From the IMG/VR virus record IMGVR_UViG_2909288124_000007, positions 1 to 37,727 of that record: 37,727 nt of DNA. One strand, given 5' to 3'. Below are positions 1 through 37,727 of this stretch, one piece after another. Position numbers and translations under genes: made by a program. The notes under the pieces are model-generated. The model did not search any database. It saw nothing but the letters and a program-made list of their open reading frames with translations, and had not been told where the DNA came from. Source of the DNA: a virus (lineage: Duplodnaviria > Heunggongvirae > Uroviricota > Caudoviricetes). Every line of letters begins with the position of its first letter. Positions within the stretch are counted from its first letter, which is position 1.

Positions 1-90
1 TTGCCTCCCCCCCGTTGATGGGTAAAATAGCCGCAATTTTTCGTTTTCAACAAGCGCGGCGCGATGCCGCTTACTCAAGAAGAAAGAATT

Positions 91-165
91 ATGACGTTGT
101 CTCCTTATTTGCAAGAGGTGGCGAAGCGCCGCACTTTTGCCATTATTTCTCACCCCAATAATTAA
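91..165 (+). pseudogene. prfC: 5' fragment of a peptide chain release factor 3 (prfC)-like gene: 22 native-looking codons, then divergent sequence and stop; host/prophage left junction
   Basis: Translation 91-156 is [22 protein letters not shown], which matches the RF3 N-terminus as I recall it (…AIISHPDAGKTT…); the frame then reads NN-stop (TAA 163-165) instead of the GTPase P-loop. An integrase gene follows. Confidence 0.7.
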
Positions 166-385
166 GCCCAAATTAAAGCTCTTTTACTCTTTCAAAATCC
201 TTTCAGTTAATTGAGATTGAGCTATATAACTCATTTAAATACATTTAGTTATGTGGCTTCTTTAATTGAAAATTCTTTCATGTAACTTTAAATCGATCTG
301 CTTGCTTTCATCAAAAATCTGTACATATGCTTGTACATAATGTACAAAGCAGCAGAGGTGTTTTGCGATTTGTACAAGGTGAGTA

Positions 386-1609
386 ATGGCGCTGTCTGAT
401 GCGTGGTTGCGTTCAGTCGTTGGAAAGGAACGTGATAAGGTTTTGGTTAAATCCGATCGTGATGGTCTGTCTGTCAGAGTATCACCGAAAGGTCGCGTAG
501 TGTTCCAATATCGTTATCAATGGGCAGGGAAAGGTGAGCGTCTTGATATCGGAACTTACCCAGCAACTGGATTAAAAGAGGCCAGAGAAGAAGTTATCCG
601 TCTCCGTGGTGAACTCGAGTCAAACCGTAATCCACGATTGGTCAAGCAGGCTGAAAAACGAAAAGCTACTGAAGCCATGACGGTAGAGTCTGTGATCCGT
701 GCCTGGTATGAAGCATATTGTGTAAAAAATAAAAAAGGCTCTGAACAGATACTCCGCTCGTTTGAGCTGCACCTGTTCTCTAAAATCGGGAATATCCCTC
801 ACGATGCAGCTACATTGCATGATTGGTTAGAAGTCCTGGAGCCTCTTAGCACTAAGACTCCAGCAATAGCAGACCGATTGCTAATTAACGCAAAGCAGGC
901 CCATGTCTGGGCGTATAAGAGAAAGCTCATTGAAACTCGCCCGCTGTCGGATATCACGGGTAAAGATATGGATATCCGTAAAGGTCAGAAGAAACGGTTT
1001 CTGACACATGATGAAATTAAAATCCTTTATGCTGCGATCGATGGTTCTCGAATGGTTCCTAAATACCGGGCCTTCATTAAACTATTGCTGCATTTTGGCT
1101 GCCGTAGTTCAGAGCTAATTACCGCCAGGGTGGACGATTTTGATTTCATTAATAAAGTATGGACTGTACCACCAGAACGACATAAGACTGGGGAGATAAC
1201 GGGCGAACCGCTAAAGCGGCCCATTATTGAACCGGTTGAAGAGCTTATAAAGTACGCTATTTCTATGAACAATGGTTCCGATATGCTTTTTACTAAGGAA
1301 GGAAGCAGGGAACCCGTTGGTCGGACATCATTGCAGTCGCTGCCTTACAATTTAATGCAGTATGCATGGCGGCGTTTGGGGTATCAATTCCCTCATTGGT
1401 CTCTGCATGATTTGAGGCGAACAGCACGAACAAACTTTTCTGATCTTACTGCGCCTCATATCGCAGAAATAATGCTCGGTCATAAACTGCCGGGGGTATG
1501 GCAAGTTTATGACAAGAGTGATTATTTAGAAGAACAGCGTAAAGCCTACCAGGCATGGTGGGAGAGAGTTGAATCGATTGTTACTTGTTCTGGTTCAGAC
1601 ACCAACTGA
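386..1609 (+). CDS. tyrosine recombinase / phage integrase with N-terminal arm-binding (P4-type) domain
   Basis: 407-aa ORF; N-terminus (LSDAWLRSV…GLSVRVSPKGRVVFQYRYQWAGKGERLDIGTYPATGLKEAREE) is typical of the DUF4102/arm-binding domain of P4-like integrases; C-terminus has an HxLRRT-like segment (WSLHDLRRTARTN) and a conserved Y region; sits next to the att junction. Confidence 0.9.
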   Translation: MALSDAWLRSVVGKERDKVLVKSDRDGLSVRVSPKGRVVFQYRYQWAGKGERLDIGTYPATGLKEAREEVIRLRGELESNRNPRLVKQAEKRKATEAMTVESVIRAWYEAYCVKNKKGSEQILRSFELHLFSKIGNIPHDAATLHDWLEVLEPLSTKTPAIADRLLINAKQAHVWAYKRKLIETRPLSDITGKDMDIRKGQKKRFLTHDEIKILYAAIDGSRMVPKYRAFIKLLLHFGCRSSELITARVDDFDFINKVWTVPPERHKTGEITGEPLKRPIIEPVEELIKYAISMNNGSDMLFTKEGSREPVGRTSLQSLPYNLMQYAWRRLGYQFPHWSLHDLRRTARTNFSDLTAPHIAEIMLGHKLPGVWQVYDKSDYLEEQRKAYQAWWERVESIVTCSGSDTN

Positions 1610-1781
1610 CAGTTTGCATATTTTGAACGCAATAAAATATGACAGTCCGCTTTGAGCGAGGAGCGGATATATGATGTTTAGAAAACGCGCGATTTGCAGT
1701 TAAGCAATCTAAGTTACTGATGTACTATACTGGAACTGCTGGCCAGTTTGTGTTGAACACCATCATTATCACAATAAGGAA

Positions 1782-3035
1782 ATGAAAGTTGAAATGAATA
1801 CTAAACTTTTGGCCTATTTAAACAATGAGTTACATGGAGTGTGGGTAGATAGTGAAAATCGTAATATCCACATAATACTTAAATCAAGCCTTCCTATAAT
1901 TAAATCCGTCTGGTCAGGAGCACCTATCCACTTTTTGGTAGGTTTATCTACTAAAAATATACTAGTGATTGGGATGTTGATTGAAGATAATGTCGATAAT
2001 CCATTTTTACTAGCCTATCCACCAAGAGAGGCAGATGAAATTAAAGGGCTGGATTTGTTATTGTCAGGCGCTTATGATGGTATTCTATTATCATTTTTTG
2101 ACTCGCATACAATGCGTGTTATGGACCTGAAAATAAAAGTTTCGGAAAATTTACCGTGTGAATGTTTAAAAAAATTTTGTGCTAATTCATATTCTCTCAA
2201 TTCAGGATTTAGGGAAGGTAATGAAGCAATGGATGAATTCTGCAACAATGCTTTGACTGGTAACGAGAAAATAATTAGTCTGCCACTAAGTGTAATCGAT
2301 AAAAAATCTTACCTAGCAAGTGTTCATGAACCAAACGATACCGTATTAACATATGAATTTAGCGTCAGTGAAAACGGCTCTGAGGGATATGAGCAGGAAG
2401 CTCTTATATACCATGCTTTGCGGCAGGTCTTTTCAACGGAGGAAGTGTTTTTTTCTCCAGATATTATTGAGGGTAATAAAAAAAGAGAACTAGTTGATAT
2501 TCTTATTGTAGAAAATGACTATGTATTATCTATACAGTCTAAAGCATCATCTTTGATTGAAATGGGTTTGAAATCTCATGAAAAGCTTTGTAGCATGTAT
2601 AAGAAAAAAGCATTGCAAGGGATCGATCAGGTTAAAGGCGTTATCCCAATTCTAAATAATGATGTGGTTATTAATTATGACGGGAGGGAATGCTTAATAA
2701 AGCGCAGAAAGGGTATTTATCATTTAGTGATAATCTCAGATCTTGTTTTAGAGAAAGAAGGTGCTGAAAAGATTTATAACGAAATTAGCAACCTTAAAGA
2801 GTCAAAAGGGGCGAAAGTTTTAGTTATGAGCCTTGAAGGTCTTGTAAATTTTATAAGACTATCAAGATTAAATAAAAGAATGTTTTGGGCAATGCTGGAG
2901 GCTAAATACAAGTTCAGCATAAAAAACCGTACAATTTTAATTAGAGATATCGACTCTAGCCAAGAGAATAATCTACCATTACTTGCCACTGATCAATACC
3001 TATCACTTCTTCGAGGTACGGGAAAATTAAAATAA
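1782..3035 (+). CDS. hypothetical AT-rich cargo protein (417 aa); candidate defence/abortive-infection effector with a possible PD-(D/E)xK-like core
   Basis: Long uninterrupted ORF with AGGA upstream (alternative start ATG 1794); base composition visibly far more AT-rich than flanking phage genes; lies between int and the xis-containing operon, convergent with the latter; no recognisable phage structural or regulatory motifs. Confidence 0.6.
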   Translation: MKVEMNTKLLAYLNNELHGVWVDSENRNIHIILKSSLPIIKSVWSGAPIHFLVGLSTKNILVIGMLIEDNVDNPFLLAYPPREADEIKGLDLLLSGAYDGILLSFFDSHTMRVMDLKIKVSENLPCECLKKFCANSYSLNSGFREGNEAMDEFCNNALTGNEKIISLPLSVIDKKSYLASVHEPNDTVLTYEFSVSENGSEGYEQEALIYHALRQVFSTEEVFFSPDIIEGNKKRELVDILIVENDYVLSIQSKASSLIEMGLKSHEKLCSMYKKKALQGIDQVKGVIPILNNDVVINYDGRECLIKRRKGIYHLVIISDLVLEKEGAEKIYNEISNLKESKGAKVLVMSLEGLVNFIRLSRLNKRMFWAMLEAKYKFSIKNRTILIRDIDSSQENNLPLLATDQYLSLLRGTGKLK

Positions 3036-3236
3036 ATTGTATCAATGATACTGTTGCCACGTATCGAGACTGGCTTATGAACGGAAGGGTTTTCCAGCAG
3101 TTCAGCGACCGGAGCTGCACATCGATGCCGGATTGTGCCTGCAATTATGTACTTGGCTAAGAGGTGCTGCTGGCTCTGGATAGAATAACCCTAACGTCCA
3201 AAGAGCGCGCATTTTCATGTAAAAAAATAAATAGCT

Positions 3237-3320: not shown

Positions 3321-3515
3321 TTACTCAATTACTCCTGTAAACCTGTATATCTTACGTGATGCCCATTTATTTGGGCAGGATTTAATATCAGGATCTGGAA
3401 AATCAGGCCGATATTTCTGACCAGTCCTCCGGTTTACACTGTTCCAGCGAAGCACCGTCGATATTGAAACGCCACAGAATTCGGCGACTTGTTTTGTTGT
3501 CATTAAGTTGTTCAT
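3321..3515 (-). CDS. AlpA-family excisionase / small HTH transcriptional regulator
   Basis: Translation MNNLMTTKQVAEFCGVSISTVLRWNSVNRR… is the characteristic AlpA/Xis HTH; GGAGG 7 nt upstream of ATG at 3515; start overlaps stop of upstream gene (ATGA). The longer annotated ORF (to 3599) is an unsupported N-terminal extension. Confidence 0.75.
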   Translation of the reverse strand: MNNLMTTKQVAEFCGVSISTVLRWNSVNRRTGQKYRPDFPDPDIKSCPNKWASRKIYRFTGVIE

Positions 3516-3859
3516 TGTTGACCCTCCTGTGGTTGTGCAGTTGAAAGACTCATGCCAGCGCGTTGTTTCCAGACGACCCAGCCGAGAGCCATATCCCACG
3601 CCATGTACTCGTTATCACCGTTTTTTGCTCTCCGACGATCGACTGTTTTACCGAAACGCTTTTCCATAAATAATTCATAGGCTGCGCGTTCATCTGGCTC
3701 AACTTCCAGAGATGCCAGTGCAATCCGTGCCAGTTCTAAATCATCTTCAAGCTCAGCGCGAATCTCAGCGAATGCACTCTGTGTTAAGGCGAACTCAATG
3801 CTCTGCACTTTATTCCGTGCGCGCTCAAGTAGTGCATGGTAGTTAATTTCGGTTGTCAT
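3512..3859 (-). CDS. hypothetical phage early protein (115 aa)
   Basis: ORF with GAGG-containing RBS; ATGA start/stop overlaps with both neighbours indicate an operon. Confidence 0.55.
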   Translation of the reverse strand: MTTEINYHALLERARNKVQSIEFALTQSAFAEIRAELEDDLELARIALASLEVEPDERAAYELFMEKRFGKTVDRRRAKNGDNEYMAWDMALGWVVWKQRAGMSLSTAQPQEGQQ

Positions 3860-4734
3860 ACCCCTACCTCTTCGAATTTTAATTCCAATTGATCACCCCA
3901 GATTTCACATGACTCTGAACACGAGCCGGTATCGAATCGCCTGGCCTGTACCATCGCCTGATACAAATTTCTGTAGTCGCTGTTGGCAGACATTCTGGCA
4001 ATTCCGTCAAGCGTCAGGTGACCACGGTACATAACGTCTTTACCTGTTCTGCGATGACCATCCCTGACGTGTTTGCCTGTAACCAGCTCATTAAAAACTC
4101 GCATCAGACCAGGTTCGTCTTTACATGCAAGCCCCAGCTTTTGCGTTGACTTTTTGATGCAGAAAACACAGTTCCCGAGATGCTCCGGGATTTGCAAATC
4201 AAAAGGTTGTTTTCGCCACCACCGGATAACATCCGACTTATCAAAATCTGACAGTTCGGCAAGATACCGGATGCCCGATTTCGGTTTCAGCCTACGGGGT
4301 TCGTCTGCACGAATACCCAGCCATGTGATGTAATTACCTCGCCCGAAATGGTTATCGCAGTATTTCGTGAAAGGGATGAGTTTTAGCCTGTCAGTACAGA
4401 ACGCGCCACCGATGTATGGCGTGCCGTACTTTTTAACCATGTCCATAAACGGTTTAAGTACCGGCATTCGCGTCTGAATATCCTTTGGCTCCCATTCTGT
4501 ATAACCATTTGGCTGCCCAAGCTCAGGATTGATATCGACCTGCAACACAGTTAGTGGTATGCCCCAGAACTTCACAACCTCCCGAATAAAGCGGTATGTC
4601 AGCGGATGTTCGCAACCGGTATCCATAAAGATGTAGCAGACGTTATTGCCAGCCTTTCTTTGTTCTTCCATCAGGTGAACAAGATATGCGGATGTTCTCC
4701 CGCCAGAAAAACTAACTACATGAGTTATGCACAT
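3856..4734 (-). CDS. phosphoadenosine phosphosulfate (PAPS) reductase family / PP-loop protein
   Basis: PP-loop-like motif VVSFSGGRTS near the N-terminus (SGGxDS-type with Asp replaced by Thr). Start taken at ATG 4734 (MCITHVVSF…) because the longer ORF would overlap the upstream gene by about 120 nt; start uncertain. Confidence 0.65.
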   Translation of the reverse strand: MCITHVVSFSGGRTSAYLVHLMEEQRKAGNNVCYIFMDTGCEHPLTYRFIREVVKFWGIPLTVLQVDINPELGQPNGYTEWEPKDIQTRMPVLKPFMDMVKKYGTPYIGGAFCTDRLKLIPFTKYCDNHFGRGNYITWLGIRADEPRRLKPKSGIRYLAELSDFDKSDVIRWWRKQPFDLQIPEHLGNCVFCIKKSTQKLGLACKDEPGLMRVFNELVTGKHVRDGHRRTGKDVMYRGHLTLDGIARMSANSDYRNLYQAMVQARRFDTGSCSESCEIWGDQLELKFEEVGV

Positions 4735-5261
4735 TTGCGTAATTCCGATAACTCGTTGAAGCGTTCCATAAACATCCCGTAGGCATGGCCCGGTGCCAGT
4801 GGAATAACTTTGAACATCTCTGTTGCCGGGATACCTTCCAGTACAGGCCATAAAGAGCCATCATCAAGCCCGAGATCACGGCGTTCGGTTGCCAGCATGA
4901 TGAGATCGGCATATTTCACAGGCGTGCTCATAACCGGGGGCAACTCGTATTTCTCACGGATTACTGCATCTATTTTTTCTTCCATCCGTTTATAGTCAGG
5001 AAGAAGGCGTTTCAGTGGTGCGGGGATGTCCTGGCAATACGCTTCTGTTGCATCATGCATTAACGCTTCAAAAGCAAATTCCTGCGGCACCAGCTGGCTG
5101 CAAAGCACCGCATGTTGGGCGACGCTGTAGAAGTGAGAAAGATGACCGGCAAAGCGGCAGATATTTGAAAGGGAAACCGCGATATCGTTAATCACGATGT
5201 CGTCTTTATTTATCCTGTCATAATAAAAATGCTTCCCGGAAAAAGTTTTAATAAATGACAT
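4725..5261 (-). CDS. HD-domain phosphohydrolase (YfdR-like 5'-deoxynucleotidase family)
   Basis: H…HD-type metal-binding signature (…AQHAVLCSQ… / …LMHDATEAY…); GGAG 6 nt upstream of ATG at 5261 gives a 178-aa product; length and context resemble CPS-53 yfdR as I recall it. Confidence 0.7.
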   Translation of the reverse strand: MSFIKTFSGKHFYYDRINKDDIVINDIAVSLSNICRFAGHLSHFYSVAQHAVLCSQLVPQEFAFEALMHDATEAYCQDIPAPLKRLLPDYKRMEEKIDAVIREKYELPPVMSTPVKYADLIMLATERRDLGLDDGSLWPVLEGIPATEMFKVIPLAPGHAYGMFMERFNELSELRKCA

Positions 5262-35969: not shown

Positions 35970-36571
35970 TGAATAAAGCCGTATTAAATAACGAACTCAT
36001 TGCCATAAAAGCGGGAGTCATTACCATTTATAATTATGATGGTGAAACGCGGGAATATATTTCCACATCAACTGAATGTCTTGCGGTTGGCGTCGGTATC
36101 CCGGCATGTTCTTGTTTAGATGCACCAGTTACACATAAAGCTGGTTATGCAATCTGCCGTTCTGCAGATTTTAACTCATGGGAATATGTGCCAGACCATC
36201 GCGGTGAAATCATCTATAGCACCGAAACAGGAGAATCGAAAGAAATCACAGCTCCGGGTGATTATCCTGAAAATACAACCACTATCGCCCCGTTAACGCC
36301 ATACGATAAATGGGATGGTGAGAAATGGGTGACGGATACCGAGGCACAGCATAGCGCCGCAGTAGAAGCGGCAGAAGCACAGCGCCAGTCGCTGATTGAT
36401 GCTGCAATGGCTTCCATCAGTCTGATTCAACTGAAATTACAGGCCGGGCGGAAGCTGACGCAGCCAGAAAACACCCGACTTAACGCTGTGCTGGATTATA
36501 TTGACGCGGTGACGGCAACAGATACCAGCACAGCGCCGGACGTCATCTGGCCTGAACTGCCGGAGGCGTAG
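35969..36571 (+). CDS. tail fibre assembly protein (Tfa/U-like)
   Basis: 200-aa ORF immediately after the tail fibre gene; conserved C-terminal segment shared with the inverted Tfa' gene (…VDTSGAPDIEWP… / …TDTSTAPDVIWPELP…). Confidence 0.75.
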   Translation: MNKAVLNNELIAIKAGVITIYNYDGETREYISTSTECLAVGVGIPACSCLDAPVTHKAGYAICRSADFNSWEYVPDHRGEIIYSTETGESKEITAPGDYPENTTTIAPLTPYDKWDGEKWVTDTEAQHSAAVEAAEAQRQSLIDAAMASISLIQLKLQAGRKLTQPENTRLNAVLDYIDAVTATDTSTAPDVIWPELPEA

Positions 36572-36983
36572 GCCATTCAATATCTGGCGCACCGGAAGTA
36601 TCGACCAGCTCCAGTGCGTCCAGATAATCCAGCCACAAATTATATTGCGCCAGTTCCTCACCTTTCAGGCGACCAATCGCCGCTTTACCAGGCCATTGCT
36701 TACTGTTTATGTATTCGTTGACCTGATTAATCAATTGCTGCTTTTCCAGTTCGGCTGCGGCAATTTGTTCCTCATGAGTTGGCGGTGGAATATCAATCCA
36801 TGCAGGCATTCCGTCGATGACACCTCTGTATTTTCCTTCTGGTGCTTCCTTCATAAATTCGGCGGCAACAGTGTCGTCAATTTCGATTCCATCACCGGGC
36901 CATTCGCCGGATTCCTGATAAGCGATTTTAAGCTCCACAGGGAAAAACGCATTTTTATCGGCACTGAAAATATATTTCTGCAT
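36543..36983 (-). CDS. alternative tail fibre assembly protein (Tfa') inside the invertible segment
   Basis: 146-aa minus-strand ORF, convergent with Tfa and sharing its C-terminal motif. Confidence 0.7.
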   Translation of the reverse strand: MQKYIFSADKNAFFPVELKIAYQESGEWPGDGIEIDDTVAAEFMKEAPEGKYRGVIDGMPAWIDIPPPTHEEQIAAAELEKQQLINQVNEYINSKQWPGKAAIGRLKGEELAQYNLWLDYLDALELVDTSGAPDIEWPTPPAVQAR

Positions 36984-36984
36984 T

Positions 36985-37383
36985 TCACCGTCCTATCGAA
37001 ATATAACTGAATCTGTATTGCTGTGAGATATCACTGGTTGCCACACGCCACGCTGAATTACTGATATGTTCAAAATTTACAGACAAAACTTGCGGGGCAG
37101 GATTCGACGGGTCTGACTGAACGGCATCAGACATAACACTGACTGAAACCATCGGCTGATTAGGGAATGGTATAGGGAAGTGTCCACTGATAAAGCGGGT
37201 CGTGTTTCCTGAAAAAGTGCCAAACTGAACAATATATCCACCTGGTAGCCTGAACCATCCCGAACCAGAAGCGAATGCTCCCATATCCGGTATCTGATTA
37301 TCTCCTGTGCCCACATCCCTTTTCGCCGCTTCTCCCAAACCAACGTTTATGAAAATGCAGAAATAACGAGCAAATGGCATCAT
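36985..37383 (-). CDS. alternative tail fibre C-terminal variable segment (Sv'), promoterless in current orientation
   Basis: Minus-strand ORF whose 5' portion (…NVGLGEAAKR…) mirrors the crossover region of the expressed fibre (…[11 protein letters not shown]…); would fuse to the constant fibre N-terminus after inversion. Confidence 0.65.
   Translation of the reverse strand: MMPFARYFCIFINVGLGEAAKRDVGTGDNQIPDMGAFASGSGWFRLPGGYIVQFGTFSGNTTRFISGHFPIPFPNQPMVSVSVMSDAVQSDPSNPAPQVLSVNFEHISNSAWRVATSDISQQYRFSYISIGR
37329..37355. repeat. right crossover site of the invertible segment
   Basis: CTTCTCCCAAACCAACGTTTATGAAAA; first 15 nt are the exact reverse complement of the left site. Confidence 0.75.
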
Positions 37384-37409
37384 TCCTGCTTTTGTCAGGG
37401 AGATCTACC

Positions 37410-37727
37410 ATGCTTATTGGCTATGTACGTGTGTCAACAAATGACCAGAACACAGATCTACAACGTAATGCGCTGAACTGTGCAGGATGCGAGCTGATTT
37501 TTGAAGACAAGATAAGCGGTACAAAGTCCGAAAGGCCGGGACTGAAAAAACTGCTCAGGACATTATCGGCAGGTGACACGCTGATTATCTGGAAACTGGA
37601 CTGGCTGGGATTATATAAAACCGCAGACACGTCGTATGCAAGAACGCGCTGCGGTTGGCTGGTAAAATTTTCGATAGTGCGAGTATTGAATGATTTCCAG
37701 CCGTTACAGATTTTACGTGCTAATTAG
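37410..37727 (+). CDS. serine recombinase, Pin/Gin/Hin-type DNA invertase; frame ends prematurely after a divergent tail (possibly truncated)
   Basis: MLIGYVRVSTNDQNTDLQRNALNCAGCELIFEDKISGTKSERPGLKKLLRTLSAGDTLIIWKLD… matches the invertase catalytic domain (Ser in VRVSTNDQ); after …WKLDWLG the sequence diverges and stops at 37725-37727, only about 106 aa from the start. Confidence 0.7.
   Translation: MLIGYVRVSTNDQNTDLQRNALNCAGCELIFEDKISGTKSERPGLKKLLRTLSAGDTLIIWKLDWLGLYKTADTSYARTRCGWLVKFSIVRVLNDFQPLQILRAN

Follow-up and report, generated by a model that had tools for sequence, protein, structure and literature searches.

Likely integration of a temperate phage at the 5′ end of prfC, with a surrogate gene start in its close relatives

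Host junction and gene content of the window

We analysed a stretch of viral DNA of 37,727 nucleotides (IMG/VR record IMGVR_UViG_2909288124_000007; hereafter, the window), the main features of which are collected in Table 1. [quoted passage not shown] From base 156 onward the window departs from K-12: the 22 prfC codons at 91-156 are followed by AAT AAT TAA at 157-165, where the K-12 frame runs on as GAC GCC GGT AAG ACT ACC (DAGKTT). A single copy of the 20-mer TTTGCCATTATTTCTCACCC is present in the window and none in shuffled sequences, so the resemblance to prfC is not due to chance. In strain 165, a lysogen, the equivalent remnant is annotated by PGAP as a 69-nt pseudogene.

The original prediction, made from the window alone, was that these 22 codons are the prfC N-terminus, that their frame ends in NN-stop instead of the P-loop and that integration took place inside the first ~66 bp of prfC, all of which the K-12 alignment bears out. 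It further held that the host promoter and 5′ fragment stay at attL and that an AT-rich arm leads to an integrase. The chromosomal yjjG-prfC sequence at 1-155 agrees with the former, as do the base composition of 157-385 and the integrase open reading frame (ORF) at 386-1609 with the latter. The prfC ribosome-binding site lies within positions 1-90, as presumably does the promoter; the lone promoter-like match in the spacer, TTGCCT-16-TAAAAT at 1-28, is a consensus match only.

Table 1. Positions of the junction, attachment and recombination features in the window
Feature	Position	Strand	Evidence or remark
Host yjjG-prfC intergenic region	1..90	+	100% K-12 identity; left at attL
Displaced prfC 5′ remnant: 22 host codons plus phage-derived AAT AAT TAA	91..165	+	
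Attachment core (crossover region), ATTATTTCTCACCC	142..155	+	attB/attL/attP/attR comparison
Phage P′ arm, AT-rich	156..385	+	29.7% GC (157-385) versus 50.8% for the whole window
Tyrosine integrase (Int), 407 aa, P4/IntSXT-type with N-terminal arm-binding domain	386..1609	+	Pfam, phrog_1
Excisionase (recombination directionality factor)	3321..3518	-	phrog_1553, E 2.5e-34, residues 28-91

Int contains the domains Arm-DNA-bind_3, Phage_int_M and Phage_integrase (PF13356, PF22022 and PF00589), all above the gathering threshold. Over 405 aa it is 99.0% identical to the integrase of phage Ayreon and 98.5% identical to that of phage cdtI; it is also, by tblastn, 97.5-97.8% identical to those of Stx phages. 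Across 24 homologues, R240, K267, R344, H366 and Y375/Y380 are invariant and H341 is nearly so; these residues would fill the R-K-H-R-H-Y catalytic roles. The excisionase, which probably directs the reverse (excision) reaction, likely starts at the ATG at 3518 within an ORF spanning 3321-3599 that also gave weak HTH_17/MerR and Xis_Gifsy_1 matches. Between int and xis lies a 417-aa ORF (1782-3035, + strand) with no Pfam, NCBIfam or PADLOC match; its sole match was phrog_30399, which has no assigned function. Ayreon and cdtI fill this slot with unrelated ORFs of ~2.1-2.2 kb, and it therefore looks like a variable cargo position. Beside xis, the early region also carries a phosphoadenosine phosphosulfate reductase-family gene (3856-4851, - strand; phrog_424, E 1e-91).

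The remainder of the window looks like a complete temperate phage: its genes specify a CI-like repressor and an endolysin, as well as the terminase, portal, major head protein, tail sheath, tape measure and baseplate. At its right end is a truncated DNA invertase gene (37374-37727). Matches of the invertase to phrog_125 and phrog_8275 are limited to its first ~78 residues, and near 37610 the sequence switches to one matching the strain 165 region beside a dinI-like gene. Two opposed ORFs, at 35969-36571 (+) and 36543-36983 (-), occupy the place of the annotated tail-fibre assembly genes of strain 165. Together with the invertase remnant, they suggest that a tail-fibre segment, once invertible, is now frozen. 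Strain 165 has an extra ~3.6 kb (8300-11900 of its locus, L001) between this remnant and dinI, absent from the window, that encodes an AAA-family ATPase and an SOS-response-associated peptidase pseudogene.

Attachment sites and the surrogate start of prfC

Comparison of the four types of attachment site defined a core, ATTATTTCTCACCC, which corresponds to prfC codons I18-I19-S20-H21 plus the first two bases of P22. In K-12, attB reads GAG GTG GCG AAG CGC CGC ACT TTT GCC ATT ATT TCT CAC CCG GAC. The attP of Ayreon and cdtI contains a surrogate prfC start that begins ATG ACA AGC CTT TTG GCC GCA GAG GTA GCG AAA AGA AGA and continues ACC TTT GC(C/A) ATT ATT TCT CAC CCC AAT AAT TAA; a window-type arm and int follow, with the surrogate located 220 bp upstream of int. 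Identity between the window and the Ayreon-type attP reaches over 136-155. On the left side of the integrated prophage, the attL of strain 165 is 100% identical to window 1-385. On the right side, the attR of both strain 165 and the Stx2c phage EH0430 runs from the phage ATG ACA AGC... through ATT ATT TCT CAC CC and, after the core, continues GGAT GCC GGT AAG ACT ACC. The encoded product starts MTSLLA(S/A), and PGAP calls the gene full-length prfC (1587 nt, 528-aa RF3).

The codon that ends at position 141 is GCC in the window attL, as in the host, and GCA in the cdtI attP and the strain 165 attR. This polymorphism places strand exchange inside the 14-mer, on the right-hand side of 141. The 14-mer is also what GenBank record LC727889 labels, at either end of its prophage, as 'duplication due to insertion'. 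Among the 5426 complete E. coli genomes, attL was found in 700 and attR in 698, so that ~13% contain both junctions. The expectation of a replacement 5′ end and a direct repeat at the other prophage end thus holds in strain 165, EH0430, Ayreon and cdtI, that is, in relatives as opposed to the window's own genome. The repeat had been predicted to end near 157; the relatives do have a direct repeat, of 14 bp, but its end corresponds to window position 155.

On the basis of these observations, we consider it very likely that window 1-385 represents the left attachment site, attL, of a temperate prophage of the myovirus type, whose Int recombines attP with a 14-bp site at prfC codons 18-22. Of this reading, the junction and core were observed directly, as were the presence of the surrogate in attP and attR among close relatives and the frequency of the junctions in E. 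coli. In the mechanism we propose, the part of attP just left of the core would supply a start codon with 17 recoded codons after it, along with an upstream region of phage origin; the core would add codons 18-21, giving a 21-codon surrogate. Integration would strand the host promoter and 22-codon fragment at attL, where the NN-stop comes next, ahead of the P′ arm and int. Joined in frame at attR to prfC from codon 22 onward, the surrogate would yield a full-length RF3.

The chimaeric RF3 is one residue shorter than the host protein, and its changes are confined to residues 3-8, which vary naturally among proteobacterial RF3 N-termini, while a downstream 10-residue stretch is invariant. From E9 to H21, 6 codons differ between host and surrogate through 8 nucleotide changes, and all 6 differences are synonymous, consistent with selection for a working RF3 N-terminus. 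The surrogate ATG was in frame in every copy examined. Furthermore, among the matches listed, the PGAP feature under attR was prfC in 18 of 18 full-length attR rows (698 genomes match at full length). Two conserved arginines encoded by CGC CGC in the host are encoded by the rare tandem AGA AGA in the surrogate (2981-3052 of the Ayreon locus, L002; 7774-7712, minus strand, of L001 from strain 165).

The window itself ends at the stop codon of the dinI-like gene. On the scale of strain 165, the surrogate ATG would be expected ~465 bp further on and the core repeat ~513 bp past the window end. The placing of the rest of prfC beyond the right end, outside the window, is in keeping with this estimate, which puts attR ~0.5 kb past the end. 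The exact right junction of the window was found in none of the complete E. coli genomes, the best match being 96.5% identical and in two pieces. As attR lies beyond the window and this junction is absent from complete genomes, we infer the window's own attR from relatives: it would be a surrogate-core-prfC fusion, with the expected order past 37727 being the dinI-like gene, the P arm, ATGACAAGCCTTTTGGCC...ATTATTTCTCACCCGGATGCCGGTAAG and a 528-codon prfC. The prophages of the window and strain 165 are mosaic relatives, with 57% megablast coverage.

A consensus scan yielded no convincing sigma-70 promoter in the conserved P arm directly 5′ of the surrogate ATG. The sole prfC-directed match, TCTACA-16-TATTAT (9 of 12), maps near dinI, to a region absent from Ayreon. 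The chimaeric prfC would be expressed from a phage-arm promoter. On the attR side of strain 165, two LexA-box-like sites (CTGT-N8-ACAG; L001 7940-7990) lie between the divergent dinI-like gene and the chimaeric prfC, one of them inside the TCTACA-16-TATTAT match. Restoration of RF3 is not strictly needed, as prfC is dispensable in E. coli, a delta-prfC strain having been used as a recipient (PMC2791158).

These data bear on a competing reading, in which the prophage merely disrupts prfC. The phage ATG and 21 codons would then be a fortuitous relic, such as host DNA captured by imprecise excision, and the lysogen would be RF3-null or hypomorphic. Bobay et al. (2013) counted prfC among the genes disrupted by prophages (PMC3603311), and this reading would accommodate the viability of prfC deletion strains (PMC2791158), the lack of a clear promoter directly upstream of the surrogate ATG and the tandem rare AGA AGA codons. 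It is, however, at odds with a frame that is intact in every attR and attP examined, with the 6/6 synonymous codon differences and with the PGAP call of full-length prfC under 18/18 full-length attR rows among the matches listed, and we regard it as improbable. From the att-site and recoding data, we argue that the 'disrupted' score for prfC (PMC3603311) is a mis-scoring, and prfC in these lysogens should not count as disrupted.

Two further readings concern the nature of the window, and to both we assign a negligible probability. Because this phage group does carry a prfC-like mini-ORF ending NN-stop beside int, the 22 codons at 91-156 might be the phage-borne surrogate, making the window the attP of an unintegrated or permuted phage genome. 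Yet the phage copy reads MTSLLAAE... with other codons, whereas the window copy and the 90 bp upstream of it are chromosomal yjjG-prfC sequence, present at 100% in 5424 genomes; the att-site alignment rules this reading out. The full set of phage morphogenesis and lysis genes in the window speaks against the element being an SXT/R391-type integrative and conjugative element (ICE), or the remnant of one, instead of a phage. Although such elements share the target gene and core codons (PMC10130350), their Int is only 39% identical and their int differs in its orientation and distance to the junction. Int identity, int orientation and phage genes together rule out an ICE. We therefore retain the reading of window 1-385 as a prophage attL.

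Candidate arm sites and use of prfC across the integrase family

We surveyed the integrase family using one genome per species and the best 80 loci. Int homologues with 50-85% identity were found across Proteobacteria. Among the best 80, 19 had a 5′ fragment of prfC that stops precisely after AIISHP and lies 197-235 bp upstream of int on the same strand. The Int of these 19 prfC-linked relatives is 47-99% identical to that of the window, and they come from Escherichia, Pantoea, Serratia, Pseudomonas, Marinobacterium, Methylomonas, Methylobacter, Kangiella, Rheinheimera, Halomonas, Microbulbifer, Variovorax, Methylibium and other Burkholderiales. The remaining 61 loci, among them those of Xenorhabdus, Photorhabdus, Morganella and Acinetobacter as well as all loci at <=45% identity, had no prfC fragment within 2.5 kb of int and presumably integrate elsewhere. 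Using tblastn on phage records, we found that only the E. coli group (95-99%) targets prfC, and the next phage integrases in these records (<47% identical) showed no prfC link. A scan of IMG/VR with the integrase returned only relatives 97-100% identical and cut at the same boundaries, which thus added no attP diversity.

Within the P′ arm, TGTACA occurs at 320-325, 332-337, 341-346 and 371-376, accounting for 4 of the 7 copies in the 37.7-kb window (Poisson P ~4e-9). The layout seen in the window recurred in 19/19 relatives: two direct copies of (T/A)GTACA(Y)A, 11-12 bp apart, and a third copy ~30-35 bp further, right before the int ATG. Apart from this motif, the arms of these relatives cannot be aligned; their GC content spans 28% to 64%, and their Int is only ~50% identical. 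In the Ayreon attP, the P arm contains four more copies of the motif. The GTACA repeats are candidate arm-type sites for the N-terminal arm-binding domain of Int, which probably binds them in both arms. In Ayreon, a 35-nt block immediately 5′ of the surrogate ATG recurs at 80% identity upstream of the int ATG (L002 2943-2977 and 3207-3241; 320-354 in the window), so that the same TGTACA-containing sequence precedes both start codons.

Scanning window 1-385, we found no terminator-like site separating the host prfC promoter region or the prfC remnant from int. As remnant and int are also on the same strand, int may be read from the host prfC promoter in the lysogen. An extension of this idea, which we consider doubtful, is that prophage integration reciprocally exchanges the promoters of prfC and int, with effects on regulation. 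Transcription from the host prfC promoter would run through the 22-codon remnant into int, while RF3 would be driven by phage-arm sequence overlapping the GTACA repeats and translated from a recoded leader with tandem AGA; in some relatives, LexA-box-like sites of the divergent dinI gene also lie upstream of the chimaeric prfC. If this were true, the prophage could go beyond gene repair and tune RF3 dosage and termination fidelity or, alternatively, int expression could be coupled to transcription of a host translation factor.

Relation to known systems

The phenomenon described here is not new: the literature or public records already contain the target site, the 14-bp duplication, phages at prfC and 5′-end replacement. 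What is modestly new is the GTACA arm layout that extends across the family, the observation that the surrogate is recoded synonymously and the possible prfC/int promoter swap. The locus is a further example of a well-characterised strategy, in which a mobile element inserts at the first strongly conserved block of a housekeeping gene, here the lead-in to the RF3 G1/P-loop, and a surrogate 5′ end keeps the gene alive. For annotation, a 69-nt prfC 'pseudogene' beside an integrase is a reliable attL marker, and the GTACA motif together with a core-int spacing of 200-235 bp may help to predict att sites in this integrase clade.

Integration at prfC is stated for the cdt1 phage in a passage of PMC8138268 that cites Asakura 2007, and has been reported for Stx1a/Stx2c phages of STEC CC119 (PMC10132054). 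Prophages at prfC are also recorded for non-O157 EHEC. The window is a member of this cdtI/Ayreon/Stx-phage group (Stx phages, LC727876-LC727902) of prfC prophages. In addition to the high Int identity (98.5-99% for Ayreon and cdtI) and the surrogate prfC 5′ end in the phages, window 1-1650 is 95-97% identical to these phages at the nucleotide level, P′ arm included, and the 14-bp core ATTATTTCTCACCC is shared and followed by a homologous P′ arm. The genome is otherwise mosaic: the window encodes a contractile-tail morphogenesis module, lacks stx and cdt cargo, and has an ORF in the int-xis slot that differs from that of cdtI and Ayreon.

SXT/R391 elements are defined by integration at a 17-bp site at the prfC 5′ end (PMC2791158, PMC4885824), and their repeats have been published as ATTATTTCCCACCCTGA and ATCATCTCCCACCCCGA (PMC10130350). 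The 17-bp site, ATTATTTCYCACCCTGA, overlaps window 142-158 and covers the same codons, I-I-S-H-P-D. Window 142-158 reads ATTATTTCTCACCCCAA against the published ATTATTTCCCACCCTGA, again with the same codons, but the repeat shared by the window is 14 bp. The Int of SXT (IntSXT; Hochhut & Waldor 1999) is of the same three-domain type as that of the window, and Smyshlyaev et al. (2021) placed SXT Int and the cdt1 phage integrase in one 'SXT cluster' (PMC8138268). For direct comparison, SXT-type loci were retrieved from metagenomes with an int primer sequence and validated by a 413-aa ORF and the published 17-bp site. The SXT-type Int (413 aa) is only 39% identical to that of the window, whereas the family requires near-identity to IntSXT (Wozniak et al. 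2009, PMC2791158). In the SXT-type loci, the prfC remnant extends as far as ...SHPDA, and int is 0.8 kb or more away, on the opposite strand with its 3′ end facing the junction. In contrast, the 5′ end of the window int is 230 bp from the junction and on the same strand as the prfC remnant. Finally, SXT/R391 are conjugative elements, while the window carries phage head, tail and lysis genes and not the SXT backbone. At this shared site, the window thus acts in the manner of SXT, yet it falls outside the SXT/R391 family.

The original prediction likened the locus to integrases that target the 5′ end of dusA. Elements with such dusA-specific integrases, genomic islands among them (Farrugia et al. 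2015; IMEVchUSA3, Durand et al. 2021), rebuild the ORF, giving it a changed N-terminus as well as a new promoter (PMC8409611). The comparison is apt as regards strategy, since both act at the 5′ end of a conserved housekeeping gene, although the target in the window is prfC, and we take the likeness as an analogy of strategy only. The closer precedent is SXT, which shares the prfC core codons.
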